DNA of 64,000 nt from a virus, in IMG/VR virus record IMGVR_UViG_3300009128_000002. One strand, 5' to 3'. Below, piece after piece: positions 12,580-32,141 of the stretch. The position numbers and the translations under genes were made by a program. The notes under the pieces were generated by a model, which saw only the letters and a program-made list of their open reading frames with translations, made no database searches and was not told the DNA's origin. How positions within the stretch are numbered: the stretch's first letter is position 1; each line of letters opens with the position of its first letter.

Positions 12580-13179
12580 ATGAAAGATACGGTTGTATTA
12601 GATTTAGAAACCCTTGGTAGTTTAAATAATTCTGTAATTTTATCTGTTGGTATGGTCGCTGTAGATTCTGCTGAGGATTATGAGTTTGCAGATTTAATAA
12701 AACACGGTTTTTATGCAAAACTTGATGTTGCTAGTCAAGTAAAAGATGGACGCAAAATATACAAAGATACTTTGGATTGGTGGGAAAAACAAGGCCCCGA
12801 CGCTCAACGAATTCTAAAACCACTTAAAACTGATATGCATTGGAGTAAGTTAATGCCTGCAATGTTTAATTGGTTTAAAAAAGAGGGTATCGATTTCGAT
12901 AAAGCAAAATTCTATTCTAGAGGAAGTCATTTTGACTTTGCTTTATTACACGACTTATTCCGTATTACTGGTGATGCAGGTGCAATGGAAATACCGTGGA
13001 GGTATTGGAATATACACGACTCAAAAACAGTGGTAGAAACACTTTTAGGACATGATGTTGATGTAAATCCTAAAGGGTTTATTCACCACGATTGCCTACA
13101 CGATGCTGCCCGTGAATATCTTAAAATGGAATTAGCAATTTACCAATTTCAACAAACACTTGAGGATAAGAATGATTGA
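12580..13179 (+). CDS. dexA: DexA-like DEDDh 3'-5' exonuclease
   Basis: LDLETLG, DTLDWWEKQ, RGSHFDF, HDCLHD. Confidence 0.85.
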   Translation: MKDTVVLDLETLGSLNNSVILSVGMVAVDSAEDYEFADLIKHGFYAKLDVASQVKDGRKIYKDTLDWWEKQGPDAQRILKPLKTDMHWSKLMPAMFNWFKKEGIDFDKAKFYSRGSHFDFALLHDLFRITGDAGAMEIPWRYWNIHDSKTVVETLLGHDVDVNPKGFIHHDCLHDAAREYLKMELAIYQFQQTLEDKND

Positions 13180-14413: not shown

Positions 14414-16912
14414 ATGGCATTTTATACATCAGTAAATGTATTAGGAAATAAAGTTTTAAGTAGGGGTATTAATGATGATGGGAGTGATTTCATCCGTAGG
14501 GTTGATTTTAAACCAACTATGTTTGTGCCAGGAAAGACAGGTGATACAAAATATACCACATTAGAGGGTGAAAAGGTTTACCCAATAAAACCAGGCACTA
14601 TTAAAGAAACACGTGACTTTATTAAACAATATAATGATGTTGGTGGGTTTAATGTATATGGTATTGAGCATTTTGATTTACAGTTCATTTATGAAAATTG
14701 GCAAGGTGATGTTGAATTTGACCCAACATTAGTTAGGGTATATAATATTGATATTGAGGTTGAATCTGATAAAGGTTTCCCACACCCAGATAAGGCAGAA
14801 AGTATTATTAATGCTATTACAGTATATGATAATATTAAAGATACTTATTTCACGTGGGGTTTAGAACCGTGGGAATACGGACACGAATTTACTGAAGATG
14901 AAATAAAGGTTGTGTACACACAACACGATTGTGAAGAAGATTTACTGAAATCATTCTTAGATTTTTGGGAACTTACACCACCACATATTGTGACTGGTTG
15001 GAACGTTGAAGGTTTTGATATACCGTATATTATTAATAGATATGCACGTATCTTTGGTGTAGCAGAAACTAAAAGGTTTTCCCCTTTTGGGTGGATTAAG
15101 GAACGTAAATTAACATCAAATTTCGGTAAGGAATATGTTGTATATGACATGTTTGGTGTGCAGGTAGTGGACTATATGAAATTGTATAAAAAGTTCACAT
15201 ATAAGATGCAGGAGTCATATAAACTAGATTGGATTGGACACGTAGAACTTGGTGAAAAGAAGTTATCATATGAAGAAGAGGGTTCATTGCTTCAACTTTC
15301 AAGGGTTAATTATCAAAAGTTTATTGACTACAATATTAAAGACGTAGAACTTGTTAAACGTTTAGATGAAAAAATGAAATTGATGGATCTTTTGTTAACT
15401 ATGAGTTATGATGCGAAGATTAATTATCAAGATGTGTTTGGTACTGTAAAGCAGTGGGATTCTATTATTCATGATTATTTACGTAGACAACATATTGTTG
15501 CACCACCAAAACAACAAACATCAAAGAATGAAAAGTATGAAGGTGCATATGTTAAATCGCCAATTTTAGGGAAACATAGTTGGATTGTATCTTTCGACTT
15601 AAACAGTCTATATCCACACCTTATTATGCAATACAACATTTCACCTGAAACTATTGCTGGGTATAAGTCTGGTGTTAACGTTAATTCATTATTAAACCGT
15701 TCGGTACAATTAGGTGATTTGAAGGACGAAAACCTGACAGTTGCACCGAACGGTACAATGTATCGTAGGGATAAGAGAGGTTTCTTGCCCGAGTTAATGG
15801 AAAAGATTTACAAGGAACGTAAAGTTTTTAAGGGTAAAATGCTTGACGCACAACAACGTAAAGAAAATGGTGAAGATACTACGAATGAAATATCTAAGTA
15901 TAATAACATTCAAATGGCCCGTAAAATTCAATTGAACTCTGCCTATGGTGCAATTGGTAATCAATGGTTTCGTTACTACGATCTACGTAATGCTGAAGCA
16001 ATTACAACAGGTGGACAATTATCTATTCGATGGATTGAAAAGAAGTTGAATGAATTTTTAAATAATATTTGTAAAACCACTGATTATGATTATGTGGTTG
16101 CTATTGATACAGATTCTGTTTATTTGCGTTTGGAAAATGTTGTAAATGGTGCATTTGCAGGTAAAGAACAAATAAAAGAAAAGGTTGTAGATTTTCTTGA
16201 TACTATTGCAGAGAAAACTATTGAACCTTTTATTGATAAGTCGTATGAGGAACTTGGTGATTATGTAAATGCATATGAACAAAAAATGCAAATGGGACGA
16301 GAAGCAATTAGTGATAGTGGTATTTGGACTGCTAAGAAACGTTATGCATTAAACGTCTATGATAATGAAGGTGTACGTTATGCAGAACCTAAAATGAAAG
16401 TAATGGGACTTGAAATTGTTAAATCATCAACGCCTGCAAACGTCCGTGGTAAATTAAAAGAAGCAGTTGGTATTATGTTGACTGGAAGTGAAAGACAGTT
16501 AAAAGATTTAGTGCATAAATATAAAGGTGAATTTAATTCTTTAAGTGTTGAGGATATTTCATTTCCACGTGGTATAAATGAATTTACTAAATATAAGAAT
16601 AGAGATAAAAGTGTACCAATTCATGTTAAAGGTGCTAAGTTGTTTAATAAACTTAAAAAACAACACGGTATTAATAATATTGAAGATATAACAGATGGTA
16701 CTAAAATTAAATTCATTTACTTGAAAGTACCAAACCCACATACACAAAATGTTATTTCATTTGTTAGTGGTATCCCGCCAGAATTTGGTTTAGGAAGGTG
16801 GATTGATTATGATACACAATTTTATAAGTCTTTTATAAAACCATTAGAAGGTATCTTAGAACCTATTGGTTGGGATTGGGAAGAAAAGAGTACATTAGAT
16901 TCATTTTTTTAG
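14414..16912 (+). CDS. gp43: Family B DNA polymerase gp43
   Basis: DIEV exonuclease, SFDLNSLYPH, KIQLNSAYG, IDTDS, KKRY; C-terminal TLDSFF clamp motif. Confidence 0.97.
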   Translation: MAFYTSVNVLGNKVLSRGINDDGSDFIRRVDFKPTMFVPGKTGDTKYTTLEGEKVYPIKPGTIKETRDFIKQYNDVGGFNVYGIEHFDLQFIYENWQGDVEFDPTLVRVYNIDIEVESDKGFPHPDKAESIINAITVYDNIKDTYFTWGLEPWEYGHEFTEDEIKVVYTQHDCEEDLLKSFLDFWELTPPHIVTGWNVEGFDIPYIINRYARIFGVAETKRFSPFGWIKERKLTSNFGKEYVVYDMFGVQVVDYMKLYKKFTYKMQESYKLDWIGHVELGEKKLSYEEEGSLLQLSRVNYQKFIDYNIKDVELVKRLDEKMKLMDLLLTMSYDAKINYQDVFGTVKQWDSIIHDYLRRQHIVAPPKQQTSKNEKYEGAYVKSPILGKHSWIVSFDLNSLYPHLIMQYNISPETIAGYKSGVNVNSLLNRSVQLGDLKDENLTVAPNGTMYRRDKRGFLPELMEKIYKERKVFKGKMLDAQQRKENGEDTTNEISKYNNIQMARKIQLNSAYGAIGNQWFRYYDLRNAEAITTGGQLSIRWIEKKLNEFLNNICKTTDYDYVVAIDTDSVYLRLENVVNGAFAGKEQIKEKVVDFLDTIAEKTIEPFIDKSYEELGDYVNAYEQKMQMGREAISDSGIWTAKKRYALNVYDNEGVRYAEPKMKVMGLEIVKSSTPANVRGKLKEAVGIMLTGSERQLKDLVHKYKGEFNSLSVEDISFPRGINEFTKYKNRDKSVPIHVKGAKLFNKLKKQHGINNIEDITDGTKIKFIYLKVPNPHTQNVISFVSGIPPEFGLGRWIDYDTQFYKSFIKPLEGILEPIGWDWEEKSTLDSFF

Positions 16913-17377: not shown

Positions 17378-17406
17378 TTGCATTCTGCATCTTTTTGTGT
17401 TATAAT
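17378..17406 (+). promoter_or_regulatory. sigma70-type promoter for uvsX
   Basis: TTGCAT-17bp-TATAAT. Confidence 0.7.
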
Positions 17407-17445
17407 ATAACACATATTACAAATTACAAATCGGAGAAATATATT

Positions 17446-18489
17446 ATGAGTGACTTATTGACACGTCTGAAGAAATCAGGTACAATTAAATCAACCCAAT
17501 TATCAAAATCTGCATTATTTAATGCCAAGGATGTTATTCCAACAAGTGTACCAATGATCAACGTAGCGTTGAGTGGTGATGTTAAAGGTGGTATTACTTC
17601 TGGACTAACAGTTCTTGCAGGACCATCTAAACACTTTAAGACTGCATTTGGTCTTGTAATGATGAAAGCATACCTTGATAAGTATCCTGAAGCAATCGCA
17701 TTATTCTATGATTCAGAGTTTGGTACACCACAAGGATATTTTGAGTCACTTAATATTGATACTGATAGGGTATTACACGTTCCTATTAAAAATATTGAAG
17801 AGTTGAAGTTTGATATTGTTAACCAATTAGAAGAAATGGATAATAGTGATAACGTTTATATTATGATTGATTCTATTGGTAACCTTGCATCTAAGAAAGA
17901 AATGGATGATGCGAAAGACCAAAAATCTGTTGCTGATATGACAAGAGCAAAACAGTTGAAATCTTTATTTAGAATGGTTACACCATATCTAACGTTAAAG
18001 GATATTCCTTTAATTGCAATTAACCACACTTATCAAACACAAGAAATGTTTTCTAAACAAGTTGTATCGGGTGGTACTGGTGTTATGTATTCTGCTGATA
18101 ATGTTTGGATTATTGGACGTAGACAAAATAAAAAGGGAACAGAAATTGAAGGTTATGACTTTATTATTAATGTTGAGAAATCACGTTTTGTAAAGGAAAA
18201 GTCTAAAATTCCTGTATCCGTAACGTGGGAAGGTGGTATTAAAAGGTGGTCTGGTTTACTTGAAGTTGCTGTTGAAGGTGGGTTTGTAGTTAAACCGTCT
18301 AATGGTTGGTACTCTAAAGTTGATATTGAAACTGGTGAAGTCGAAGATAAGAAAGTACGTGTTGTAGAAACTGAAAAAGGTGAATTTTGGGAAGATATTT
18401 TAGAAAATGAAAAGTTCCAAAAATATGTAACAACTAAGTTTGCAATTGGACAAGGAAATTTAATTACTACTGGAGATGAGGATGAGTAA
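17446..18489 (+). CDS. uvsX: RecA-like recombinase UvsX
   Basis: AGPSKHFKT, FYDSEFG, DSIGNLASKKE, SGGTG; ATG 17446 after GGAG. Confidence 0.95.
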   Translation: MSDLLTRLKKSGTIKSTQLSKSALFNAKDVIPTSVPMINVALSGDVKGGITSGLTVLAGPSKHFKTAFGLVMMKAYLDKYPEAIALFYDSEFGTPQGYFESLNIDTDRVLHVPIKNIEELKFDIVNQLEEMDNSDNVYIMIDSIGNLASKKEMDDAKDQKSVADMTRAKQLKSLFRMVTPYLTLKDIPLIAINHTYQTQEMFSKQVVSGGTGVMYSADNVWIIGRRQNKKGTEIEGYDFIINVEKSRFVKEKSKIPVSVTWEGGIKRWSGLLEVAVEGGFVVKPSNGWYSKVDIETGEVEDKKVRVVETEKGEFWEDILENEKFQKYVTTKFAIGQGNLITTGDEDE

Positions 18490-18643: not shown

Positions 18644-18848
18644 TGAATTATTTTATATACGTACTAAAGATGGTACTGAAATTGCCATCTTTGATTTAGG
18701 TTTGGTTGGTAATAATATATCATATAGTTACAATGCAGTTGAAGAAAACATTGATGTTTCAAGTTACGATGTTGAAATTAATGAAATACTTTCAAGTTTA
18801 ATAACTAAAGAAATACTTAATAACTCGGGGTGTCCTTTTGTCGATTGA
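18636..18848 (+). CDS. Small hypothetical at the T4 gp40 position
   Basis: AGGAG RBS, TTG start, lies between uvsX and 41. Confidence 0.5.
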   Translation: MDNELFYIRTKDGTEIAIFDLGLVGNNISYSYNAVEENIDVSSYDVEINEILSSLITKEILNNSGCPFVD

Positions 18849-20229
18849 AAATACAATTCTATCCAATTTAATATATAATGAAGACTATGCAAGAAAAGTA
18901 ATTGTTTTTTTAAAGGACGATTACTTTCAAACAAATAGTGATAAAATTGTATTTAATGAGATACAAAGATTTTACGCTAAATATAATGCAGTACCAACTA
19001 AAGAAGCACTTACAATTTCTGTTGATGAACGTAACGATTTATCTTCTAATGCGTATGATGAAACGTCTGCTTTAGTAAATTCACTTTCTAAAGAAGAAAC
19101 TAACGAAGATTGGTTGCTTGATGAAACTGAGAAGTTTTGTAAAGATAAAGCCGTTTATAATGCTATTATGGAGTCAATTAATATTATTGACGACGAAGAT
19201 AGTAAACAATCTGAAGGGTCTATTCCTGAATTATTATCAAATGCACTTGCAGTTTCTTTTGATACACATATTGGACATGATTTCCTTGACAATGCAGAAG
19301 AACGATTTGAGTTTTATCAACGTAAAGAGGAACGTATTCCGTTTGATATTGAATATCTAAACAAGATTACTAAAGGTGGTATTCCACGTAAAACATTGAA
19401 CATTTTAATGGCGGGAACTGGTGTTGGTAAAACAATCGGTATGTGTCATATGGCGGCATCAAATTTAACACTTGGTAAAAATGTATTATACATTACTGCT
19501 GAAATGGCAGAGGAACGTATTGCTGAACGTATTGATGCTAACCTAATGGATGTTGAAGTTGATAGTTTGAAGGATTTGTCATTTGAACGCTATTCTAAGA
19601 AAATTGAGAATATTCAATCAAAAACTAAAGGTAAGTTAATCGTTAAGGAATACCCTACATCAACTGCCCATGCTGGTCATTTCAGACATTTATTAAAAGA
19701 ATTGGCATTGAAAAAGAACTTTGTACCAGACATCATTTATATTGATTATCTAAACATTTGTGCTTCACAAAGATTAAACGGTTCTAATAATGTTAATAGT
19801 TATACATATGTTAAAGCAATCGCAGAAGAATTAAGAGGACTTGCTGTTGAATTTAACGTTCCTATTTGGTCTGCTACACAGGTTAATAGAACAGGTTTTA
19901 GTTCATCTGATATGGGTCTTGAAGATACATCTGAATCATTTGGTTTACCTGCTACTGCTGACTTATTCCTTGCCTTAATTGCAACTGAGGAATTACAAGA
20001 ATTAAACCAAGTAATGGTTAAACAGTTAAAGAATCGTTATGGTGATGAAAATATGAACAAACGATTTGTTATTGGTATCAACAAAGCAAAAATGAAGTGG
20101 TATGATGTAGAACAAGATGCACAAAAAGACATAATGGGTAATGATGTTGAAGATGATGTGAATCAAAGTGTATTTGCTACAAGTAAAGGAGAAAAGAAGC
20201 AAAAAGCATTCAAGGATTTTAAAGTATGA
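18838..20229 (+). CDS. gp41: Replicative helicase gp41
   Basis: AGTGVGKT, EMAEERIAERIDAN, IDYLNIC, SATQ, SESFGLPATAD. Confidence 0.95.
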   Translation: MSIENTILSNLIYNEDYARKVIVFLKDDYFQTNSDKIVFNEIQRFYAKYNAVPTKEALTISVDERNDLSSNAYDETSALVNSLSKEETNEDWLLDETEKFCKDKAVYNAIMESINIIDDEDSKQSEGSIPELLSNALAVSFDTHIGHDFLDNAEERFEFYQRKEERIPFDIEYLNKITKGGIPRKTLNILMAGTGVGKTIGMCHMAASNLTLGKNVLYITAEMAEERIAERIDANLMDVEVDSLKDLSFERYSKKIENIQSKTKGKLIVKEYPTSTAHAGHFRHLLKELALKKNFVPDIIYIDYLNICASQRLNGSNNVNSYTYVKAIAEELRGLAVEFNVPIWSATQVNRTGFSSSDMGLEDTSESFGLPATADLFLALIATEELQELNQVMVKQLKNRYGDENMNKRFVIGINKAKMKWYDVEQDAQKDIMGNDVEDDVNQSVFATSKGEKKQKAFKDFKV

Positions 20230-20843
20230 AGTATGGTATAGTATGTGCAATGAAGGAGGAAGTTTGTAAAATAGTAACCTCGTTGCACCTTAAAAAAGAA
20301 GTTGTTTATGGTGGACAACAAATATGGACAAATAAGAATAAGAACATTATTTTAATACATTCTGATATAGGTAAAGTGTTGTCTGCACAGGCAACAACAA
20401 CACTTATTTACTCATATAATGTAGATGCTGTTATTAATATTGGTATTGCAGGTGGAATAAAAGAGGTTGAACCTGGCTCTGCATTTGTAATCAATAAAGT
20501 AAGACAGTGGGATACTTTTGTACCATTTGAAGAATATCAAGATGTGTTGTATAATAAAGTAGAATGTTCTGTACCAACATACTTGGATGTTGAAGTTAAG
20601 AGTTTAATAACTGGTGATACATTTGCAACAGAAACACCAAACACAACGTATGATCTTATTGATATGGAAGGTTTCGCAGTTGCGAAAGTATGTGAAAGTT
20701 TTAATATTAACACAATTATAATCAAAGGGGTTAGTGATAATGTTGATGGGGTCAGTGTCGATGTTATGTTTGATAACTTGAATATTGCAATGGATAACTC
20801 TATTGACATTTTGAAGGATATACTTAAACCGAATTTATTATAA
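20226..20843 (+). CDS. mtnN: 5'-methylthioadenosine/SAH nucleosidase (PNP_UDP_1)
   Basis: GIVCAMKEE, IGKV, INIGIAGG, TGDTF, DMEG, IKGVSD. Confidence 0.8.
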   Translation: MKYGIVCAMKEEVCKIVTSLHLKKEVVYGGQQIWTNKNKNIILIHSDIGKVLSAQATTTLIYSYNVDAVINIGIAGGIKEVEPGSAFVINKVRQWDTFVPFEEYQDVLYNKVECSVPTYLDVEVKSLITGDTFATETPNTTYDLIDMEGFAVAKVCESFNINTIIIKGVSDNVDGVSVDVMFDNLNIAMDNSIDILKDILKPNLL

Positions 20844-20846
20844 ATA
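20839..20846 (+). promoter_or_regulatory. T4 late promoter heading the internal-protein cluster
   Basis: TATAAATA about 30 nt before ATG 20879. Confidence 0.75.
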
Positions 20847-20878
20847 GTGTTATTAGATATTTTTTACGGTGTGTAAAA

Positions 20879-22102
20879 ATGAAAAGTTTCAAAACCTATT
20901 TACAAGAAAAGGCAGTCCCTCTAACACATTTAGAGCACGTAGAGGATGCTATCTTTGATTTTGGTAAATCAGGAGCAGAATCTGCCCTTAAAATTTTAGA
21001 TGATGTTACACATTCTTTAGAAGGACACTCTAAACGTGCAGTAAATATTCAGGCAAAGGTTGATGGAGCACCAGCTGTGGTTGCTGGTATTGACCCAGAA
21101 AACGGTAAGTTTTTTGTAGGTACTAAATCATTATTCAATAAAACACCAAAAATCAATTACACAGACGCAGATATTGATAAGAACCATTCAGGTGGTCTTG
21201 CCACCAAATTAAAAGACGCTTTAAAACATTTCCCTAAAATTATAAAAAAAGGTATATATCAAGGTGATTTTATGTTTTCACCAGAAGACCTTAAAAAAGA
21301 AAAGATTGATGGTGAAACATACACTACATTTACCCCCAACACAATTACATATGCAGTACCTACAGGTGGTGATTTAGAAAGTAAAATAACTTCATCTAAA
21401 GTTGGTGTTATTTGGCATACCACATACACTGGTGATGCAATCAGTAATTTAAAGGCACAGTTTAAAATTAATCTAAAAGCATTTACACAACATAAAGATG
21501 TTTGGTTTACTGACACAAACTTTAGGGATGTTTCTGGTTCTGCTACATTAACCACTACTGAATATAAGACAATTCAGACAAAACTAAAACACGCACATAA
21601 AGAGTTGAAATTATTAAATGATAAAGATATGAGTATATTATTTGGTAAGACTGAAGTGTCAAAGATGGTTAAGATTTATATAAATGCACAAGTTAGACGT
21701 GGTGAAAGGTTTACTAATAAACAGAAATCTGTTGGTACATTCATTGACTTTATCCGTGCAGATTATGAAAAGAAAATTGCTAAATTAAAGAGCGAAAAGG
21801 GTAAAGAGAAGAAGAAAAAACAATTAGAAGATGTTATTAAAGATTTCCGTAAATCTGCTGGTACATTCTCACATACATTACAATGGCACGATGATGTTAT
21901 TGATATTAAAATGTTAATTGTTAAGAAATTAGAAACAGTCAATCAAATACCTGCATTTATTAAGACTGATACTGGTTATAAGACTACAGGACCAGAGGGT
22001 TTTGTTGCTATTGATACATTATCAAACAGTGCAGTTAAATTAGTTAATAGATTGGAGTTTAGTAAAAATAACTTCAATGCAGTAAAACAATGGGTGAAAT
22101 AA
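20879..22102 (+). CDS. Probable internal head protein with RNA-ligase/nucleotidyltransferase-like motifs (DUF6267-like)
   Basis: N-terminal MKSFKTYLQE; HLEHVED, KVDG, YQGD, EGFV, VKLV. Confidence 0.7.
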   Translation: MKSFKTYLQEKAVPLTHLEHVEDAIFDFGKSGAESALKILDDVTHSLEGHSKRAVNIQAKVDGAPAVVAGIDPENGKFFVGTKSLFNKTPKINYTDADIDKNHSGGLATKLKDALKHFPKIIKKGIYQGDFMFSPEDLKKEKIDGETYTTFTPNTITYAVPTGGDLESKITSSKVGVIWHTTYTGDAISNLKAQFKINLKAFTQHKDVWFTDTNFRDVSGSATLTTTEYKTIQTKLKHAHKELKLLNDKDMSILFGKTEVSKMVKIYINAQVRRGERFTNKQKSVGTFIDFIRADYEKKIAKLKSEKGKEKKKKQLEDVIKDFRKSAGTFSHTLQWHDDVIDIKMLIVKKLETVNQIPAFIKTDTGYKTTGPEGFVAIDTLSNSAVKLVNRLEFSKNNFNAVKQWVK

Positions 22103-22104
22103 AT

Positions 22105-22989
22105 ATGAAAAAATTTAATGAGTTTATTACTGAAAAGGCACGTACAAAATCATCAAGTGATGTTTTGACATTAGCCGCTGATAAAAGTAAAACCGAAGAA
22201 TTAAGAGAGTTAATTAACGCAAAACATAAAATAACTAAAGACGTTGGTAAAATTTCAGCAACTACACCTGAAAAGTTTGTTACTGAATTTAATAAGGCAC
22301 TTACTAAAAATAAAGCTATTTTTACAAAGATATTTAATGATGTGCCTAAAGGGGTTGGTCCTGGCGAAGTTTTACTTGCTTACTTATCTGATAACGTAAC
22401 TATTGGTGGTGGACGTTCAAACTTTGATGTTGAATTAGGTACACATAAAATTGAAGTTAAGGCAACAAAAGTAGATAAGAATTTGTTTGCATATAATTTT
22501 AGATTAGGTGTTGACAGTCGTGGTGCATTAATTAATACATTAAAAGAAATTAAGGCTTTATATAAGGTTGCAAAATTCTATATAGATGAAATTAACAATG
22601 ATGAAATGTTATCAAAAATCGACCGTGGTGAAATGACATCACTTAAAAAGCATTTAAAAGGGTTCGATCCTTCAGTTGCTGCTGGTTATGAAAAACTAGA
22701 TATTAATGTTTTTAAAAACCAAAAAGTTATTTTCCAAGGTAAAACTATTGGTAAACTAACTGATAAGGATATACTTAGTAAATTAAAGACGTTAGCGACT
22801 ACAGAATACACAAAGATAAAAGGATATGATGAAATAGAAACTGGTTTAGAAGCAAAACTATCTGCACATAAAATGAAATATTTCTTTTTCAACATAGACA
22901 CATTAGAATTATACTATAAACCAAAACTATCTGGATCAGTTATTGATACTATTACTGGTGGTTCAATTAAGGTAAGGGTGCCATTATGA
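22105..22989 (+). CDS. Probable internal head protein with PD-(D/E)xK-like nuclease motif
   Basis: MKKFNEFITE; GPGE...FDV...IEVKA. Confidence 0.6.
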   Translation: MKKFNEFITEKARTKSSSDVLTLAADKSKTEELRELINAKHKITKDVGKISATTPEKFVTEFNKALTKNKAIFTKIFNDVPKGVGPGEVLLAYLSDNVTIGGGRSNFDVELGTHKIEVKATKVDKNLFAYNFRLGVDSRGALINTLKEIKALYKVAKFYIDEINNDEMLSKIDRGEMTSLKKHLKGFDPSVAAGYEKLDINVFKNQKVIFQGKTIGKLTDKDILSKLKTLATTEYTKIKGYDEIETGLEAKLSAHKMKYFFFNIDTLELYYKPKLSGSVIDTITGGSIKVRVPL

Positions 22990-23585
22990 AAACATTCAAA
23001 CAACATATAAAAGAAGAATCGCTATCTTCATTAGAAAAAAAGAAAGTTCAACTATTTTTGAAAGCGATGAAAATGGTTTCAAATTCACCTAATCAAATGG
23101 AAGTTCGTAAGGAACTTGACGATGTGTGGAAGAAAATCAAAGCAATGAAAGAAGGGGTTGAACTTAATGAAATGGAATTTACTTCTAAACAACTTGCACA
23201 ACTAAAGAAAGATTATGCAGGAATTAAGAAAATCGACCCATCAAGTGATACATATAAAAAGATGAGAGCAATGATTGATTCTTTACCTAAAGAAGCATTA
23301 CAATCATTAGTTAATGCTAAAATCAACTTCATTTCAATATTAGCAAATAACTCATTAAGGAAACTTAAAGAAGAATATGTTACCGAAGGACTATCTCCAC
23401 AAAAGGATATGGAAAATAAGTTGGACAGACTTATTGACGCAGACAACGTAAAGGCTGCTATTGAGTGGAGTAAGTATGTTGATAAATTAGGTCCAAAGTT
23501 CGTAAACCCAAGTAATGCTAGATGGACTGCAGAACACGTTAAAGTGATGGATAAACTTATTAAGAAGTATAGAATTAAACAATAA
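22986..23585 (+). CDS. Probable internal head (poly)protein
   Basis: MKTFKQHIKEE; linkers EGVELNE and LKEEYVTE. Confidence 0.65.
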   Translation: MKTFKQHIKEESLSSLEKKKVQLFLKAMKMVSNSPNQMEVRKELDDVWKKIKAMKEGVELNEMEFTSKQLAQLKKDYAGIKKIDPSSDTYKKMRAMIDSLPKEALQSLVNAKINFISILANNSLRKLKEEYVTEGLSPQKDMENKLDRLIDADNVKAAIEWSKYVDKLGPKFVNPSNARWTAEHVKVMDKLIKKYRIKQ

Positions 23586-23586
23586 T

Positions 23587-24591
23587 ATGAAATCATTTGC
23601 ACAATTTGATAAGGATTATGAATACAATTTATTTGTAGAAGCCCTTACACATTATGAAAATGGTACTAACCTTAATGAACTTGCTATGCCTAGTTTTATT
23701 AAGAAAAAGGTAGAGTTTGTTAAAAACGTTGCCGTTATTCTTAAAAAGAACTTTAATGATATGGTTAATTTCTTTAAGGAAAAGGTTGTATTTCAATTCT
23801 TCAAGGCAATAAAATGGTCTTTTGATAGAATCTTTAAGATCATGAAAGCTGGTTGGAAAGCATTTAAAACGGTTCAAAAAGTTATATTTGATTATATGTC
23901 AAATACAGTTGTTGGTAAATGGACTACTAAAGAATTAGCAAAGTTGGATGAGTATCTAAAGACACACAAAAAAACCAAACGTATGGGTGGTGTGGTTGTA
24001 TCGGGTATGTTAATATATATTTGGTTCAATATGACATTCACTGGTGATGTTGGTTATGACTTTGATATGGGTGATATTCTTTCTGCACTTGCTGGTAAGT
24101 TCTCGTTGGCAACTATCTTCGGTGGTCCTGAAGGTGCTAAGTTATTGACGTTATTCATCACTGGTGTTATTGGATTATCGTTCCCATGGCCTGGACCATC
24201 ATCTGTTCAGTTTATTGGTGCAATTGTATTGGGTATTGGTAATAAAGTAAAAGCAAAATTTAATCCATTAAAAGAAGCAATAAAACGTGACGATAGTCAA
24301 TCTGGTATAAAAGGTTTTAAAAATCAAGGTACTGCATCTAAAGCGGGTAAAGTTGCTGGTAAGAATAAGAGTGATGATGCAATGCGTAAGCATAATGATG
24401 CTATGATTGATGCCGCTTTAAAACAAGATAAGAAAGCATTTGATAAATCAGCAAAAACAGTGGCAAAATTATTTCATAAAATGTACGGACAAACTATGAA
24501 AATCCAAACAATGTGGAGTGTTAAGAAGGCAAAGGCAATGAAGGACGGTTCGTTCTGGAAGATGCCGATATCACAAAGGAGTAAGTTATAA
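23587..24591 (+). CDS. Probable internal protein with hydrophobic helices
   Basis: MKSFAQF start, LNE and LKE linkers, 2-3 TM-like segments. Confidence 0.6.
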   Translation: MKSFAQFDKDYEYNLFVEALTHYENGTNLNELAMPSFIKKKVEFVKNVAVILKKNFNDMVNFFKEKVVFQFFKAIKWSFDRIFKIMKAGWKAFKTVQKVIFDYMSNTVVGKWTTKELAKLDEYLKTHKKTKRMGGVVVSGMLIYIWFNMTFTGDVGYDFDMGDILSALAGKFSLATIFGGPEGAKLLTLFITGVIGLSFPWPGPSSVQFIGAIVLGIGNKVKAKFNPLKEAIKRDDSQSGIKGFKNQGTASKAGKVAGKNKSDDAMRKHNDAMIDAALKQDKKAFDKSAKTVAKLFHKMYGQTMKIQTMWSVKKAKAMKDGSFWKMPISQRSKL

Positions 24592-25889
24592 TGTTAACAT
24601 TTAAACAACATTTAGAAGAAGCAAAGAATAAACCAGTCGTGTTTACGTTTGGTAGATTTAATCCTATAACTAAAGGACACGGTGAGTTGATTGACTTCGT
24701 TGTTAAGAAATCAAAAGGTGGTATTGGAATGGTGTTTACCTCACAATCCAATGAGCCTAAAAAGAACCCATTAGATTATAATACAAAAACTAAGTGGTTA
24801 AAGAAGTTTTTCCCTAAAGCAACTATCGTTAAGAATACTACATTAAAAACACCATTTCAAATATTAAAATGGTTATCTGACCAAGGTTATAAAGACGTAA
24901 CTATGGTTGTAGGTAGTGATAGGGCAGATGAATTTGAAAAGAGTATGCGACCTTATATAAACCACGAAGATCCAAAGAAATCATATAACTTTGATAAATT
25001 TGAAGTGATTAGTTCTGGTAATCGTAAAGCTGGCGTATCTGGTACTGATATGCGAAACCACGTTAAGAATGGTGATATGAAATCATTTATGAAAGGACTT
25101 CCTAAATCTGCTTCTAAACAAGATGGTGAGAAATTCTTCAATGATGTTAAGTCTGGTATGGGTATCAATGAATATCTTGAAATGGGTACTGACGAAACTA
25201 CTAAAGAATACAAGAAAAACACTCCAGGCGAATTAGACGAAGGAACATTGAAAGATATGTTCAAAGCAATCATTGGTAAGAAAACGATGCATACCTTCAA
25301 CCGTGCTGTACACGAAAAGAAGTATAAACAGGCATTGAAGATTTACCATAAAATGGTTAAGAACTACAACAAAAATCCTCAAGCACAACAATCATCAGGT
25401 GTTATTATCGCCAATCCTAAAGGACTTGCTTTATCAAAAGCGGCACAAATGGTTGGTATTAGTGTTAAAGAATTAAAGAAAGTTCTTGATAGAAAAACAC
25501 GTTATGAAAGTTTCGAACAATTTGACGAGCAAATCACTAAAGCAAACTTAAACGATGTTGAACGTTTTGCTGACAAAATCTTTGCTAAAGTTGGTATTGA
25601 TATTGAATTTACTCGTCATTTCCTTGATAGGGTGAACGATAAACGTAACGGTAAAGAAATTAGTGTTGCTGAATTGACACGTCTATTCAAACAAACATAT
25701 AAGAAACATGGTAAGAAAATTGCTAAGATGGGTGACGATGCTCAAGCAGTATTGAATGATTTACAAACAGATATAAATATGCCATTTGTATTAAAATACG
25801 ATCCAGATATGGATGAGTTTGATTTGGTTGCTAAAACTGTGATGAGGAAGAAAGACTTCAAAACAAGCAATCAAAAATTGAAAGTATAA
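24591..25889 (+). CDS. HxGH cytidylyltransferase-family protein fused to extra modules, including a RegB/RelE-like C-terminal domain
   Basis: MLTFKQHLEE; FGRFNPITKGH, VVGSDR, SGTDMR; C-terminal IEFTRHFLDRVND. Confidence 0.8.
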   Translation: MLTFKQHLEEAKNKPVVFTFGRFNPITKGHGELIDFVVKKSKGGIGMVFTSQSNEPKKNPLDYNTKTKWLKKFFPKATIVKNTTLKTPFQILKWLSDQGYKDVTMVVGSDRADEFEKSMRPYINHEDPKKSYNFDKFEVISSGNRKAGVSGTDMRNHVKNGDMKSFMKGLPKSASKQDGEKFFNDVKSGMGINEYLEMGTDETTKEYKKNTPGELDEGTLKDMFKAIIGKKTMHTFNRAVHEKKYKQALKIYHKMVKNYNKNPQAQQSSGVIIANPKGLALSKAAQMVGISVKELKKVLDRKTRYESFEQFDEQITKANLNDVERFADKIFAKVGIDIEFTRHFLDRVNDKRNGKEISVAELTRLFKQTYKKHGKKIAKMGDDAQAVLNDLQTDINMPFVLKYDPDMDEFDLVAKTVMRKKDFKTSNQKLKV

Positions 25890-25893
25890 TTAT

Positions 25894-25901
25894 TATAAAT
25901 A
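25894..25901 (+). promoter_or_regulatory. T4 late promoter
   Basis: TATAAATA upstream of 25924. Confidence 0.7.
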
Positions 25902-25923
25902 TTGGTATATTTGGAGAAAAGAA

Positions 25924-26172
25924 ATGAATTTAGAAGAAGCTTATAAAGAAATGCAAACAGTCCAATTGTATGAGAGGAAATTCGATGCTAAGAAGGCAGA
26001 GCAAACATTGAGAGATATACTAAAAGTGTATGCTCAAGTTAAGTCTGTTGGACTGGATAAAAACATATATAAACGTTGGGATGGTATGTGGTATACAACA
26101 TATACTACTTGGTTTTCATCTAGCGATATGGAAAAGATGGGTTTACCAACAATGTTGAGGATTGGAAAATAA
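25924..26172 (+). CDS. Small probable internal protein
   Basis: MNLEEAYKEM...LYE leader; GGAG RBS. Confidence 0.6.
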   Translation: MNLEEAYKEMQTVQLYERKFDAKKAEQTLRDILKVYAQVKSVGLDKNIYKRWDGMWYTTYTTWFSSSDMEKMGLPTMLRIGK

Positions 26173-26173
26173 T

Positions 26174-27136
26174 ATGAAATCATTTAAACAACATTTACAA
26201 GAAGAGAAACTATTCGAGGAATACCTTGAAGAAAAACTAATTATGCTTTCTCAAGGTAAGAAGTATGGACAAATTGTATTTCTTGCAGGTGGTGCTGGTT
26301 CTGGTAAAGGATTCGCTTCAACTAATTTTATGCAGAAAGAGTTATTCAAAGTGCGTGATGTTGATGAATGGAAGAAAACGTTTATGGATATTGCTGATAT
26401 TATAGACAACCCAGCAAGATATGCTAAAATGAAAAAGGCAGGTACTGAAATTCCAAAAGGCGAATATGAAGAAATTAAAGGTTTGGATTTAAAAAATCCT
26501 AAACACGTTGAAAAGTTACATTTCTTTATTAAGAAATTAGGTCTTAAAAACAAGACACTTGATTTGATGCTTAGTCAAATGAAAAACAAAGAAACGTTAC
26601 CAAATATTATGTTTGATATTACTGCTAAAGATTCAAAGGATATTGGACAATTTTTACCACGTTTATTACAGGCGGGATATAACCCTGCAAATATTCATTT
26701 AGTATGGGTATTAACTGATTATAAAATTGCTATTAAACAAAATGCTGGTAGAGAACGTGTTGTGCCTGATGATATTATGTTAGCAACACATAAAGGTGCT
26801 TCTGAAACAGTTTACAAATATGTTACTGGACAAGGTAAGAAGATGCAGATTAATGGCGAAATTCACGTTATTTTAAATAATCAACAAAATACAATATTTT
26901 TCGAACCATCTGGTGCTGATAGAACTTCTAATATGAAGAAGTATGATAATAAAACCAATAAGTTTAAAAAGAAAACTAATGGTTTAGTTGTTAAAGATTT
27001 TAAATATTTGACATTGAAAAAACGTGGTAAACCAATTTCAAAAGAAGCAGAAGTACAAAAACAATTATATAGTTGGGTTGTTGATAATATACCAAAGAGT
27101 GATTTCCAAAAGGCATTAAAGGATATTAATAAATAA
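26174..27136 (+). CDS. P-loop kinase (zeta-toxin/AAA_33/PNK-like) with capsid-targeting-like leader
   Basis: MKSFKQHLQEE; FLAGGAGSGKG, DVD, NAGRERVVPDD. Confidence 0.75.
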   Translation: MKSFKQHLQEEKLFEEYLEEKLIMLSQGKKYGQIVFLAGGAGSGKGFASTNFMQKELFKVRDVDEWKKTFMDIADIIDNPARYAKMKKAGTEIPKGEYEEIKGLDLKNPKHVEKLHFFIKKLGLKNKTLDLMLSQMKNKETLPNIMFDITAKDSKDIGQFLPRLLQAGYNPANIHLVWVLTDYKIAIKQNAGRERVVPDDIMLATHKGASETVYKYVTGQGKKMQINGEIHVILNNQQNTIFFEPSGADRTSNMKKYDNKTNKFKKKTNGLVVKDFKYLTLKKRGKPISKEAEVQKQLYSWVVDNIPKSDFQKALKDINK

Positions 27137-27137
27137 A

Positions 27138-27347
27138 ATGTGTCCGATTTGTTGGACATTAGCGGTATTAACCTTTTTAGGTTTTGGTAGTGCTTCGATA
27201 ACATTGTTTGTTCAATCAAACGGTTGGTTGTCGTTTGGTTTAATGGTGTTTACGTCAATAACGTTTTGGGTTTTGACGTATAAATTAGTAATGAGTAAAT
27301 GCGAAAAGGGTGGTAAAAAATGCGAGTGTGGGAAACCGAAGAAGTAA
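27138..27347 (+). CDS. Small two-TM Cys-containing protein
   Basis: CPIC, two hydrophobic helices. Confidence 0.55.
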   Translation: MCPICWTLAVLTFLGFGSASITLFVQSNGWLSFGLMVFTSITFWVLTYKLVMSKCEKGGKKCECGKPKK

Positions 27348-27655
27348 TAGAAATATTAGAGCAGGGTCCAGTAAGATTAAAGTTAAAATTTACTAATGGT
27401 GAATTAAGACAGTTTACTCGTGATATGGGTACTGCAGACACTTGCCATTGTGATGAAGGACATAAGTCTTGTGGTTTTATATCAGAATTAGAGTGGACTG
27501 ATAGGTTACTCTGGTGGGATAAAGATGGACGAATTGCTGTATGGGATATTGGTACACACGAATTTACCAACATTCTGGCAGAAGATATAGATGTAATTAT
27601 TGGACATGGTGAAGATGAAGGTAAACCCTCATGTTGCTGTAGTAAGGAGAACTAA
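27320..27655 (+). CDS. Divergent WYL_2/Sm-like barrel protein
   Basis: EILEQGPVRLK..NGELRQFT...IAVWDI resembles the 36947 protein. Confidence 0.5.
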   Translation: MRVWETEEVIEILEQGPVRLKLKFTNGELRQFTRDMGTADTCHCDEGHKSCGFISELEWTDRLLWWDKDGRIAVWDIGTHEFTNILAEDIDVIIGHGEDEGKPSCCCSKEN

Positions 27656-27657
27656 GA

Positions 27658-27924
27658 ATGACAAAGACTGAATTATTAAAACATTTGAAAGAAGGTGTTG
27701 TTAGAGCAAGAATTGATGGTGAAGTGCGCCAATTTACACGTAATGCCAGTAAGACTGGACTTATGGAAGATGGTGACCTTAATGTACTAACTGATGCTAA
27801 AATTAAAGAAGCAGATTCTGGTGCTACTATTGGTGTTTATGAATTAGGTATTGGTAAATTAACTACAATTACTAATAAGGAAATGAATGATATTATTGGT
27901 ACAATTAATTTAGAATGTCTGTAA
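27658..27924 (+). CDS. Divergent WYL_2/Sm-like barrel protein (paralog of 27320)
   Basis: LKEGVVR..DGEVRQFTR...IGVYEL; shares GExRQFTR and IIG with 27320. Confidence 0.5.
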   Translation: MTKTELLKHLKEGVVRARIDGEVRQFTRNASKTGLMEDGDLNVLTDAKIKEADSGATIGVYELGIGKLTTITNKEMNDIIGTINLECL

Positions 27925-28076
27925 CACCGACAAAGGAAGAAAAGAAAAGAATTATGGACAAAGTTCCTACTAGAACGATGTCTTATAAACAATGGGGTGA
28001 AGTTCTAGGTTGGACTCACTCAGAAGCAAAACAAGGAATTAAAGATGAAGACATTCAATCAACTAAGAGAAGCTAA
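27915..28076 (+). CDS. Small hypothetical (53 aa, not in ORF track)
   Basis: MSVTPTKEEKKELWTKFLLERC... read manually. Confidence 0.4.
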   Translation: MSVTPTKEEKKRIMDKVPTRTMSYKQWGEVLGWTHSEAKQGIKDEDIQSTKRS

Positions 28077-29559
28077 AAACTACGATAAAATAGCAAAGGA
28101 TATAAACAAAACTTATGCTTCATCTAGAGGTAAAGTAGGTAAGGATAAAGATGGTGTTGATACTGCTGGAAACCGTGTAGTTTATGAAAAGGATGGTTAT
28201 AGAGTACAGCAACTGACTGACGATGGTTTGGGTGATACGTTTGTTGTTATTAAAAACTATAAGCAACTTCTTTTAGGTTGGTCTGCTAAAGTTGGTGGAA
28301 ATAAAAAGACTGCTCTAAAACTTAAAAAGACTGATAAGTTCAAATGGACTTGGGCAAAGTATGCCAAAAATTATGGTGGACAAGCAGGTGGTATGTTACA
28401 AGCACCTGGCTCAGAAACACTATCTGGTAATACGTGGGAAGTATCTCCTGTAGAATTAATTGCTTGGTTAAAGAAAGAAGGTATTAAAGAATCAGTTGAA
28501 CTTGAAGAAGGTTACTTTAACGTCCAATACTACGATAAAAAAGGTAAAGCAGTTAAAGGTGGTAAAACATTCAAAACTAAATCTGAAGCAGATAAGTATG
28601 CTAAACGTGGTAACGCAGTAGATAAAGTTGGTGGTACATATAAAGTTCTTGCTGTTAAAGGACGTATGGAATCAGTTGAACTAGACGAAGTTGAACTTGA
28701 TGAAGCAAAACAAGTATCTCTTTCAAAGAAAGGTGAATATAATTTAACTGCTGATGGCAAATCCTCTGTTGGTGTTCGTTTATCACTAAGATATAATGGT
28801 AAACAAGTTCTTACTGGTGTTAAACAAGATGGTATGTTTGTAATGGCGTTTGATGCTAAGTTCGTTAAAGATAATAAATTAGATCACGGTGCTAAGATTG
28901 TTAAGAAAGGTAAGTGGACTCACGTAGGATTCAAGAAAGCAGACGATGTAATTGCTTATGCCGTTCTTGGTGGATTGAGTGAAGAAGTTATTAATGAAGT
29001 TAATAATGGATTAGGTTCATTTGTTTCGCAAATGAAGAAGTTACTTAAAGACCCTAAAGCAAAAAAGGCACACAGAGCCGCCTCATCATTGATTATGCGT
29101 GCCCAAGAGAAAGGACCTCTTGCTAAAACTGCTGTTAAAGCAATCAAAAAAGCATTGCCTGGACTTGCTAAGAAGGCAGGTGGTAAATGGGAAAAGAAAA
29201 TTCTTGGTATGAGAACAATGTTAATTGAGGAAAAAGAAATGAAAACATTTGAAAGTCTAAGAGGTGAATTAACTGAAGCGAAAGCAAAAGGATTTATTGG
29301 AACTAAAGGTAATAACAACTACGCAGTATCATTAGATGGTGCTGACAGTTCACGTCCTGATTCAATGGATGTAGAACGTGCCGCTCATAAATTTAAGAAA
29401 GTTGCTAAAAAGGGTTATGCTGGTTCTAAAGGTAAAGCAACTATACCTGCAGTTAAAAAAGAAATTAAAATGTTAGGTGCAACACAGTATTATGCAAAAT
29501 GGCAGAAAGATTCTTCTTCATACAAAGATGATACTGTTACAATCTATTACACTAAATAG
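28045..29559 (+). CDS. Lys-rich multi-module probable internal-head polyprotein
   Basis: MKTFNQLRE leader; linkers ESVELEE, ESVELDEVELDE, LSEEVINE, LIEEKEMKTFESLRGELTE. Confidence 0.75.
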   Translation: MKTFNQLREAKNYDKIAKDINKTYASSRGKVGKDKDGVDTAGNRVVYEKDGYRVQQLTDDGLGDTFVVIKNYKQLLLGWSAKVGGNKKTALKLKKTDKFKWTWAKYAKNYGGQAGGMLQAPGSETLSGNTWEVSPVELIAWLKKEGIKESVELEEGYFNVQYYDKKGKAVKGGKTFKTKSEADKYAKRGNAVDKVGGTYKVLAVKGRMESVELDEVELDEAKQVSLSKKGEYNLTADGKSSVGVRLSLRYNGKQVLTGVKQDGMFVMAFDAKFVKDNKLDHGAKIVKKGKWTHVGFKKADDVIAYAVLGGLSEEVINEVNNGLGSFVSQMKKLLKDPKAKKAHRAASSLIMRAQEKGPLAKTAVKAIKKALPGLAKKAGGKWEKKILGMRTMLIEEKEMKTFESLRGELTEAKAKGFIGTKGNNNYAVSLDGADSSRPDSMDVERAAHKFKKVAKKGYAGSKGKATIPAVKKEIKMLGATQYYAKWQKDSSSYKDDTVTIYYTK

Positions 29560-29968: not shown

Positions 29969-30364
29969 ATGATAGAAACACCGAAGGAAATAGACTTTCC
30001 AACCTTGAACAAGAGGAACTTTTTGACATATATGGCGAGCCATTATGTGGAGAACCTAGTTGAAGATGATGTTTGTGATTTTGAGGATGATTTAAAACGT
30101 ATAAAATACATTAAACGTTTATTAACAAAGTATAATGAAACTGGTGTTTTAAAAACACGATTATTATTAAACCATATTGTTATATTAATGAATACACTTG
30201 GTCCACTTGCTACTACTAGGATATTATTATATAAAATTAATCCCAAATACCATGAAATTATATCAACGTTTTTACATGAATTAAATGCTTTAAATGGTGT
30301 ATTAATGAAAGAAATGGGTATTGATGAAAAGGTACAAAACTTAATTAGAAAAGAAATGCGATGA
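29969..30364 (+). CDS. Conserved T4-like hypothetical protein
   Basis: LNKRNF...FEDDLKRIKYIKRLL...RLLLNH pattern typical of marine T4-like genes near primase. Confidence 0.7.
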   Translation: MIETPKEIDFPTLNKRNFLTYMASHYVENLVEDDVCDFEDDLKRIKYIKRLLTKYNETGVLKTRLLLNHIVILMNTLGPLATTRILLYKINPKYHEIISTFLHELNALNGVLMKEMGIDEKVQNLIRKEMR

Positions 30365-31118: not shown

Positions 31119-32141
31119 ATGGATTATATTGATCAGAAATACATAGGTATTCTGGGCGTTCGCCTAGAGCAATTCAAAAAGAAAGGTAAAGGGTTATGGC
31201 AATGTCGTTGTCCTTTATGTGGCGATTCTAAAAAAGACAAAACAAAGGCACGTGGTTTCATCTTCGAATATGATGGTGATGTAATGTATAAGTGTCATAA
31301 TTGTGGTGTTGCAACAAGTTTTCCAAGTTTACTTAAAGAAGTAGATATTAACTTACATAAACAGTATGTGCTTGAAAAGTTCGGTAATAAGAACAAACGT
31401 AAGAAACCTGAAACTGTTGATGAATTTTTCAAATCAGTAAAGAATAAGTTTGAAGGTAAAACGTTTAGACTACACGGTCTTAATCGCATTGACAAATTAG
31501 ATTCAAATCACCCAGCAAAACAATATTGTGACAATAGGAAAATACCTATTGAAGCACAAAAACGACTGTTTTGGACTGATACGTTCAAACAATGGGCCCA
31601 TTCTAAAAACAAAGAAAAGTTCAAAGTCATCAAAAAGGATGAGGGTAGAATTGTTATTCCATTCCTTTCTGAAGATGGACATTTGATAGCATTTCAAGGA
31701 CGTACACTTGACCCAAACAATGAATTACGTTATATAACTATTAAAGTTGATGAAACTGTATGTAAGTTGTTCGGACTTGAAAAGATGGACACAACAAAAC
31801 CTGTGTATGTACTCGAAGGTCCGATTGATAGTTTATTCATTCCTAATTCAATCGCAATGGCAGGTTCTGATATGAACAAAAAATGTGTGATGAACAAGGA
31901 TACTGAATTTGTTATTGTAATGGACAACGAAAACAGAAACAAAGAAATCGTAAATAAAATCGCTGGATTCATTGATAATGGATTTTCAGTATGTATTTGG
32001 GATGAGAATATTAAACAGAAAGACGTGAATGATATGATACTAAACGGTATGTCTGCTGAACAAGTATTTGACTCAATTAAACGCTATACATATAAAGGAT
32101 TACAAGCAAAAATGAGACTAGCACAGTGGAGTAAAGTTTGA
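31119..32141 (+). CDS. gp61: DNA primase gp61
   Basis: CPLCGDS...CHNC zinc finger, FQGR, TOPRIM EGPIDSLF, DNE, KDVND. Confidence 0.95.
   Translation: MDYIDQKYIGILGVRLEQFKKKGKGLWQCRCPLCGDSKKDKTKARGFIFEYDGDVMYKCHNCGVATSFPSLLKEVDINLHKQYVLEKFGNKNKRKKPETVDEFFKSVKNKFEGKTFRLHGLNRIDKLDSNHPAKQYCDNRKIPIEAQKRLFWTDTFKQWAHSKNKEKFKVIKKDEGRIVIPFLSEDGHLIAFQGRTLDPNNELRYITIKVDETVCKLFGLEKMDTTKPVYVLEGPIDSLFIPNSIAMAGSDMNKKCVMNKDTEFVIVMDNENRNKEIVNKIAGFIDNGFSVCIWDENIKQKDVNDMILNGMSAEQVFDSIKRYTYKGLQAKMRLAQWSKV

Follow-up and report, generated by a model that had tools for sequence, protein, structure and literature searches.

Seven genes with a T4-type capsid targeting leader in the gp41-gp61 interval of an uncultured marine phage: a probable head-cargo cluster

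The closest described counterparts of the genes considered here are those of the internal proteins (IP) of bacteriophage T4, IPI, IPII and IPIII. These are unrelated basic proteins, expressed from late genes, which carry an N-terminal propeptide of 10-19 residues that is removed by gp21, the prohead protease (Mullaney & Black 1996; PMC9026906, PMC3012670). The propeptide acts as a capsid targeting sequence (CTS), in which positions 4 and 7 were assigned to targeting and positions 8 and 10 to processing, and Asp at position 10 is reported to block processing while targeting is kept (PMC9026906). Other T-even phages possess different basic proteins with CTS-like starts (PMC9026906), so that the CTS principle, and the fact that T-even phages place such a sequence on varying basic proteins, count as established. 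Our literature search, which did not cover key subscription papers, found no paper in which cyanophages, or any other T4-like phages from the sea, are linked to a CTS. Here we describe a 64,000-nucleotide stretch (the window) of IMG/VR virus record IMGVR_UViG_3300009128_000002, derived from an uncultured marine T4-like phage, in which seven open reading frames (ORFs), O1 to O7, situated between the genes for gp41 helicase and gp61 primase, begin with a leader of the CTS type.

The leader and its match to the T4 signal

The seven ORFs share the leader consensus M-K-(S/T)-F-K-x-(H/Y/F)-(L/I)-x-E, which is strong in five of them and degenerate in two. Phe was found at position 4 in all seven, and position 7 is F, Y or H in six and Leu in O7. 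The (L/I)-x-E element occupies residues 8-10 in five ORFs and residues 7-9 in O7, and is replaced by D-K-D in O4. The longest ORF of O2 begins at 22090, and that of O6 at 26162 with a TTG; the leader of each starts further in, at an internal ATG, and the start coordinates of O1 to O7 in Table 1 are those of the leader ATGs. Once the first 12 residues are removed, no similarity among the seven proteins could be detected (BLASTP E >= 0.26 for all pairs). The seven ATGs are preceded by unrelated DNA, and the leaders use different synonymous codons (TTT or TTC; Ser as AGT or TCA), indicating that the conserved element is the peptide and not the nucleic acid, and that selection has acted on the peptide.

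A position matrix was trained on 39 distinct leaders, extracted by script from 33 IMG/VR contigs and including none from the window, and was applied to 372 candidate starts on both strands as well as to 16,456 internal positions of the window. The first five ranks among the 372 starts were taken by the strong leaders, those of O6 (24.7 bits), O3 (24.5), O5 (21.6), O1 (20.5) and O2 (18.3), followed at rank 6 by O4 with 9.2 bits, while the background begins at 3.0 bits. At 2.4 bits the start of O7 falls below the top of the background because its L-x-E is placed one residue early. The best internal position reached 11.5 bits. No leader-bearing start other than the seven was found among the 372, and O7 holds one extra, internal copy of it at 29239.

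As read from the T4 genome (NC_000866), IPII and IPIII both start with MKTYQEFIAE, and IPI with a 19-residue relative. When the matrix trained on marine leaders was run over the 1025 candidate starts of T4, IPIII, IPII and IPI were recovered at ranks 2-4 and the next start scored far lower. The first rank went to gene 61.1, a 54-residue uncharacterised ORF whose start is a perfect CTS and which sits in the 41-61 interval of T4, the same interval that houses the cluster described here. A related small ORF adjoins gp41 in the Aeromonas phages 44RR, 25 and 31 (supplement of PMC3037559). All four functional positions of the T4 signal (4, 7, 8 and 10) are kept in the marine leaders, position 7 being F, H or Y in 34 of the 39 training leaders, though not fixed by the selection pattern. 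In statistical terms, the marine leader and the T4 CTS are one and the same motif.

An earlier note on this stretch, made from its letters alone, had claimed that seven unrelated ORFs carry a common leader which was not noticed elsewhere in the window, had likened that leader to the targeting sequence of the T4 internal proteins, had placed late promoters at 20839 and 25894, and had proposed a matrix of the leader as a check. The ORFs and their N-termini are as it described, with no BLASTP similarity past the leader, and the matrix built from relatives, which ranks the five strong leaders 1-5 of 372, agrees that the leader is confined to these starts, apart from the internal copy in O7. The likeness to T4 held when the same matrix placed IPI-III within the top four of 1025. 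Both promoters proved to be exact, intergenic octamers, and the one in front of the cluster has a conserved position in relatives, as is detailed below.

Virion proteins, relatives, promoters and charge

Proteins of this kind have been encountered in purified phage particles. O5 is homologous to T4-GC190, a core gene of cyanophages, whose 'cytidylyltransferase' product was detected by Sullivan et al. in purified S-SM1 particles (PMC3037559), and the P-SSM2 member of T4-GC190 has a canonical leader. Three further reports place a homologue of the nucleotidyltransferase in the virions of S-SZBM1, S-SCSM1 and S-CREM2 (PMC9146016, PMC9602691, PMC10665884). When the 1351 starts of S-CREM2 were scanned with the matrix, the top four were ORF154 (transferase), ORF6 (S-adenosylmethionine (SAM) hydrolase), ORF136 and ORF13. 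Mass spectrometry of purified virions had detected each of these four, in a published table of 52 of the 221 ORFs (PMC10665884), a coincidence expected by chance at about 0.003. Two more S-CREM2 virion proteins are of interest, namely the APH-like kinase ORF14, with a leader at a GTG start, and the 'Cas9-like' ORF12, with a leader-like stretch at residues 17-25. The accessible part of that paper does not mention a targeting leader (PMC10665884). In S-SZBM1 a leaderless DUF6267 protein is not in the virion table and the neighbouring leader-bearing transferase is, a single case from a shallow proteome. A targeting tag on such enzymes would explain their recurrence in cyanophage particles.

The nearest cultured relative, judged by the first gene of the cluster, is Methylophilales phage Melnitz (Kyanoviridae) at 40% identity, followed by hundreds of cyanomyophages, and no match to the cluster came from a megablast search of 50,697 phage records. 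Leader-headed ORFs were found in nearly all related contigs, five of them in the closest contig (75% identity for O1), and at the equivalent place in Melnitz and Syn9. Across the relatives only DUF6267 and the nucleotidyltransferase domain recur. Counterparts of O2, O3, O4, O6 and O7 were not found in 35 related loci, suggesting that the cargo set turns over fast, like the internal-protein loci of T-even phages. Within the families of O2, O4 and O6, as sampled from large protein collections, the start of the conserved domain is mostly preceded by a leader, with drifting wording. Homologues of O1, O2, O4 and O6 retain the leader while the residues behind it are variable, and those with DUF6267 likewise keep it, some as longer propeptides resembling that of IPI. 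SP27, a jumbo coliphage outside the T4 group, has a transferase homologue that lacks the leader and begins straight at the domain, which indicates that the leader is an add-on of the T4-like lineage.

The octamer TATAAATA, a T4-type late promoter motif, occurs eight times in the window, always on the coding strand, which is fewer than in shuffled sequences (8 vs 13.3). In related loci L003 to L012, L016 and L019 and in Melnitz it stands 34-47 nucleotides before the first leader ORF (13 nucleotides in L019), in loci of 40-75% identity. From this conserved octamer the cluster is predicted to be transcribed late. Further exact copies lie on the coding strand at gene junctions, at 10912, 33249, 46765 and 48004, and are likely to be additional late promoters, judging from their sequence.

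The seven proteins are strongly basic, with a net charge of +4.0 to +8.4 per 100 residues compared with a median of -2.9 for the 53 other ORFs of at least 100 residues (P=1.7e-7), and all seven are within the ten most basic ORFs of the window. Such a charge is expected of proteins that are stored with DNA.

The seven proteins and their surroundings

Table 1. Coordinates of the cluster, of the genes around it and of leader-bearing genes in two other phages. Positions refer to the window unless another genome is named; aa, amino acids; nt, nucleotides.
Feature	Position	Strand	Remarks
DNA polymerase	14414-16912	+	replication module
UvsX	17395-18489	+	replication module
gp41 helicase	18838-20229	+	5' flank of the cluster
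PNP_UDP_1 phosphorylase-superfamily gene	20226-20843	+	PF01048, E=8e-23; frames the cluster upstream
T4-type late promoter octamer TATAAATA	20839-20846	+	exact, intergenic, 40 nt before O1
O1, 407 aa	20879-22102	+	leader (1-10) and DUF6267 (PF19782, E=2.6e-109)
O2, 294 aa	22105-22989	+	leader and probable PD-(D/E)xK nuclease, by invariant residues
O3, 199 aa	22986-23585	+	leader and basic protein; net charge +6.5 per 100 aa
O4, 334 aa	23587-24591	+	degenerate leader, Gly-rich hydrophobic centre, basic tail
O5, 432 aa	24591-25889	+	leader, HIGH-motif nucleotidyltransferase (~1-200; PF01467), modules ~224-306 and ~312-430
Second octamer TATAAATA	25894-25901	+	exact, in the gap before ATG 25924
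Leaderless 82-aa ORF inside the cluster	25924-26172	+	no Pfam family; no homologue in related loci
O6, 320 aa	26174-27136	+	leader and Zeta-toxin/AAA_33-like P-loop protein; phrog_5268, E=2e-50
Four small leaderless ORFs (69, 111, 88, 53 aa) between O6 and O7	27138-28076	+	no Pfam family; not counted as cargo
O7, 504 aa	28045-29559	+	short leader variant, ~5 basic modules, acidic (L/I)-x-E linkers; net charge +40; complete internal leader at 29239
DUF7207 protein	29969-30364	+	E=7.5e-30; among the conserved genes framing the cluster downstream
Primase	31119-32141	+	3' of the cluster
T4 gene 61.1	NC_000866 18966-19130	-	starts MKTFKEFIKE; 21.3 bits, above IPI-III
S-CREM2 leader-bearing virion genes (SAM hydrolase, APH-like kinase, cytidylyltransferase, ORF13, ORF136)	3837-5081, 10310-12846, 124608-125468, 107301-108014		

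Across 19 O1 homologues, at 34-75% identity, the residues K60-x-D62-G63, E373-G374, K387 and R391 do not vary. They match ligase motif I (K-x-D-G), motif IV (E-G-x-V) and motif V (K followed by a basic residue), and by its motif K60 would be the active-site lysine. An AlphaFold2 (AF2) model with a predicted local distance difference test score (pLDDT) of 86.5 shows residues 1-16 as disordered before a confident fold. The best VIA-align match of this model was the Naegleria RNA ligase 5cot (Z 9.0, root-mean-square deviation 3.8, 186 residues), followed by REL1, Trl1 and T4 Rnl2 (Z 7.7-7.8 over 180-198 residues) and T4 Rnl1 (Z 6.7), and the Foldseek list was composed mostly of DNA and RNA ligases and capping enzymes, with weak scores (best E=0.038). 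At E<=0.001 Foldseek returned no match for the O1 or O2 model, and sequence searches of PDB chains with O1, O5, O6 and an O1 profile gave no usable match. Motifs and model together make it quite likely that O1 is an RNA-ligase-like covalent nucleotidyltransferase of the ligase superfamily with a helical insert. Our literature search found no mention of DUF6267.

O2 shares an invariant G-V-G-P-G-E88, D108 and E117-x-K119 with 12 homologues, most of which have a leader. The top fold matches of its AF2 model (pLDDT 85) are type II restriction endonucleases, at weak scores (NlaIV Z 4.6; PvuII E=0.34), and O2 is probably a PD-(D/E)xK nuclease, as residues and model suggest. O3 could not be placed in any family of Pfam, PHROGs or NCBIfam. 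For O4, 31 homologues were found, many with a canonical leader that runs straight into the conserved Y-E-Y with which the domain opens, and some use another leader dialect, (I/M)-K-L-(K/R)-x-L-(L/I)-x-E. The next (L/I)-x-E sites in O4 itself lie at residues 31, 122 and 230.

O5 scored 27.8 bits with PF01467, above the cut-off of 21, with T-K-G-H at residues 27-30. It also matched phrog_3041, 'cytidyltransferase' (E=5.6e-50), and the nicotinamide mononucleotide adenylyltransferase (NMNAT) models of NCBIfam were weak and far below their cut-offs. In relatives its three modules are separate ORFs, of which the last two have leaders of their own, and the (L/I)-x-E sites of O5 are found only at residues 10, 194 and 217. 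O6 reached 18.6 bits with the Pfam family Zeta_toxin (PF06414), under the cut-off of 22.3 and over the P-loop only, and its Atlas neighbours at 0.97 are viral Zeta_toxin/AAA_33 clusters. It has at least 2499 homologues, some of the close ones with a precomputed PF06414 assignment, and among its best 120 homologues the strict leader was found in 61 and variants of it in most of the remainder.

O7 contains ten (L/I)-x-E sites (residues 9, 149, 155, 215, 220, 313, 318, 395, 396 and 411), all of them at the N-terminus or at module borders that were set independently by homologue matches. Beyond residue 20 there are nine, compared with 3.0 in shuffled sequences (P=0.0008). The last module (399-504) occurs elsewhere as stand-alone ORFs of ~110 residues, some of them leader-initiated. 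The confinement of the sites to the N-terminus and the borders fits cutting by the head protease into small basic proteins, and O7 may be a modular polyprotein that is predicted to be cut at its linkers. No recognisable enzyme fold was found in O3 or O7.

The functional labels that the earlier note had attached to these proteins fared unevenly. That of a ligase-like enzyme for O1 is supported at moderate strength by the invariant motifs and the ligase-type fold matches. The HxGH nucleotidyltransferase in O5 is supported, with Pfam above threshold and phrog_3041, and the P-loop kinase in O6 stands as a Zeta-toxin/AAA_33-like protein by phrog_5268 and its Atlas neighbours, with PF06414 below cut-off. 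The PD-(D/E)xK label of O2 is plausible by the invariant E...D...E-x-K, and its fold match is weak (Z <= 4.6; E >= 0.34). Two labels fared less well. An RNase-like C-terminus of O5 would have to be read from a lone 29-residue patch of BLASTP similarity to T4 RegB (E=0.031, in a single comparison), and Pfam listed no RNase family for this module even at E<=10, so that the RegB-like reading found no support. O4 had been called a membrane protein, and the maximum of its 19-residue Kyte-Doolittle window is 1.49, which is borderline and short of a clear membrane helix (none of its windows reaches 1.6).

The genes of the window are all on the plus strand, at about 32% G+C, and follow the order of the T4 replication module, with gp46/47-like genes, sliding clamp, clamp loader, DNA polymerase, UvsX and gp41 helicase and, later, primase. 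The PNP_UDP_1 gene between gp41 and the cluster had a counterpart in none of 35 related loci. The conserved genes 3' of the cluster form the boundary of the corresponding region in Melnitz and Syn9 as well, and the DUF7207 gene just 3' of the cluster is kept in Melnitz, Syn9 (gp189) and S-CREM2 (ORF159). Among the small ORFs between O6 and O7, those of 111 residues (27320-27655) and 88 residues (27658-27924) are adjacent and acidic and have in common a G-E-(L/V)-R-Q-F-T-R-(D/N) stretch near their N-termini. This suggests a tandem duplication of a gene without family or leader. The 69-residue ORF (27138-27347) combines an N-terminal hydrophobic segment with a Cys-rich basic tail, and is the sole ORF of the cluster with a Kyte-Doolittle window above 1.6.

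Mechanism, alternatives and comparison with known systems

The most economical explanation of these results is that the cluster is a late-transcribed, fast-changing cargo block that a T4-like marine myophage carries between gp41 and gp61. We put at about 0.72 the probability that the seven proteins form a head-cargo system of the T4 type, with targeting by a CTS, trimming, storage with the DNA and delivery. Since they bear the tag that loads T4 heads, it is probable that the virion takes them up and that the head protease trims them. In such a system the first ~10 residues, with an aromatic residue at position 4 and an aromatic residue or His at position 7, would dock each protein to the prohead core during head assembly, and a protease of the gp21 type would then cleave behind the Glu that ends the (L/I)-x-E at positions 8-10. 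In O7 and O5 the same protease may also cut the acidic linkers between modules. Once mature, the proteins would be stored beside the DNA inside the head. If they behave like T4 IPI* and Alt, they would exit with it, able to act in the next host before phage gene expression.

Several points weigh against this reading. The virion detections concern homologues in relatives and not the seven proteins themselves, and ejection and an anti-defence role would follow by analogy with T4 only. Two of the seven leaders are off consensus, that of O7 with 2.4 bits and that of O4 with D-K-D at positions 8-10, which includes the Asp10 that blocks processing in T4 (PMC9026906). Depletion of (L/I)-x-E inside the cargo was not significant overall, with O1 (P=0.05) and O6 (P=0.08) marginal and O2 to O4 undepleted, and the fold scores of O1 (Z 9.0) and O2 (Z 4.6) are modest, their assignments coming otherwise from motifs. 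A gene for a prohead protease of the gp21 type is absent from the 64-kb window. The protease gp21 reportedly belongs to the 38-gene core of T4-like phages described by Sullivan et al. That core holds virion-construction and replication genes common to 26 of 26 T4-like phages compared (PMC3037559), and Peptidase_S77, the gp21-type family, is encoded by Melnitz, Syn9 and S-CREM2 (E~1e-32). In the parts of the cyanophage proteomes that were available, presence in the particle is reported and removal of a leader is not (PMC3037559, PMC9146016, PMC9602691, PMC10665884). Their authors were unsure of true packaging, as abundant non-structural proteins might co-purify.

It could be argued that the leader does target the prohead core and that the proteins are of an assembly or scaffold type, or serve as counterions of the DNA, being degraded or inert and including no effectors. 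In T4 the prohead protease gp21 also acts on the core proteins gp22, gp67 and gp68, which for the most part then exit the head in the form of peptides (PMC9026906), and the extremely basic O3 and O7 would suit such a role, O7 in particular since it looks built for cutting into small basic pieces. However, four of the seven proteins have enzyme-type domains with conserved catalytic residues, which would not be maintained in a filler protein, the tagged virion proteins of S-CREM2 include a SAM hydrolase and a kinase, and the cargo set varies between close relatives, unlike the essential parts of a scaffold. We therefore regard this explanation as unlikely.

Somewhat less probable still is that the N-terminus is a tag for another process, such as recognition by a modifying enzyme or chaperone, enhancement of translation initiation, or degradation as a degron, and that the cyanophage detections represent carry-over of abundant late proteins. 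The carry-over caveat was raised by the proteome authors themselves. Against it, the motif was identified as the T4 CTS by independent scoring with the four functional positions kept, no conserved partner gene is evident except the head protease, and the lack of conservation in the DNA around the start codons argues against an element of the mRNA. Moreover, the match between leaders and virion proteins in S-CREM2 is too tight for random carry-over, and the basic charge suits life beside DNA. A chance resemblance or compositional artefact of an AT-rich genome (32% G+C), where Lys, Phe, Asn and Glu codons are frequent, can be dismissed for practical purposes, as five matches of 18-25 bits stand over a background of 3.0 bits at 372 starts and 11.5 bits at 16,456 internal positions and the leader is conserved in dozens of relatives.

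Returning to the head-cargo system, a bolder and more tentative proposal is that the CTS serves as a plug-in system by which the heads of marine T4-like phages are preloaded with a changeable kit of enzymes, and that this kit blunts tRNA-cutting, nicotinamide adenine dinucleotide (NAD)-depleting or restriction defences ahead of any phage transcription. The interval between gp41 and gp61, which also holds 61.1 in T4, might then be the ancestral home of such cargo. In that case the kit encoded here would consist of RNA-ligase-like, P-loop kinase-like and nucleotidyltransferase members, as a set for RNA repair or nucleotide salvage, together with a nuclease, and that of the relatives would include the SAM hydrolase and a protein kinase.

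If the head-cargo system is real, these enzymes would be delivered as protein rather than expressed after entry, and models of early conflict between ocean phages and their hosts would have to change. The leader offers a mechanism for a puzzle of cyanophage proteomics, in which a 'cytidylyltransferase/NMNAT-like' enzyme, kinases and a SAM hydrolase recur in particles, and it provides a simple sequence rule for predicting head cargo in abundant ocean phages, including cyanomyophages, pelagimyophages and the kin of Melnitz. DUF6267, present in hundreds of phage genomes, gains a testable function as a ligase-like nucleotidyltransferase, and it is suggested that the packaging-tag tool developed with T4 might transfer to marine phages.

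Among the systems that load enzymes or anti-defence proteins into the head, the putative cargo would resemble T4 Alt, a head-carried enzyme that is trimmed by the prohead protease gp21 at both ends and injected to act at time zero (PMC9026906). Alt differs in having another propeptide and in being a single ADP-ribosyltransferase, an activity found in none of the cargo described here. In phiKZ and SPN3US many head-internal proteins, some of them enzymes, are cut after Glu in a short motif by a gp21-related protease and ejected (PMC5694885, PMC7411985), but the cleavage motif is another one, there is no short shared N-terminal tag, and most propeptides of the SPN3US ejection proteins are longer than 100 residues. 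The Dar system of phage P1 (DarA, DarB, Hdf and others) packs anti-restriction proteins into the head and delivers them with the DNA (PMC9024508, PMC12810830), whereas loading there follows an ordered hierarchy of protein-protein contacts, with no common cleavable N-terminal tag and with unrelated sequences. As for the virion enzymes of S-SM1, S-SZBM1, S-SCSM1 and S-CREM2, O5 is homologous to T4-GC190 and the S-CREM2 enzymes carry the same leader. The accessible parts of the papers concerned give presence only, leave packaging open and mention no targeting leader (PMC3037559, PMC9146016, PMC9602691, PMC10665884).

The closest likeness is to T4 IPI-III, with their M-K-T-(Y/F)-x-E-F-..-(L/I)-x-E propeptide (NC_000866), their unrelated basic proteins and a locus content that varies between relatives. 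Unlike those three small non-enzymatic proteins, which are encoded at two other loci, the present cargo comprises seven proteins of 199-504 residues in one gp41-gp61 block. It is known from genes alone, most of it is enzyme-like, two members are fused from several modules and contain leaders or linkers inside the chain, and position 7 of the leader is often His. The cluster thus departs from T4 in how many cargo proteins it encodes and how large they are, in their being enzymes, in the fusion of several modules into one chain and in its place between replication genes.

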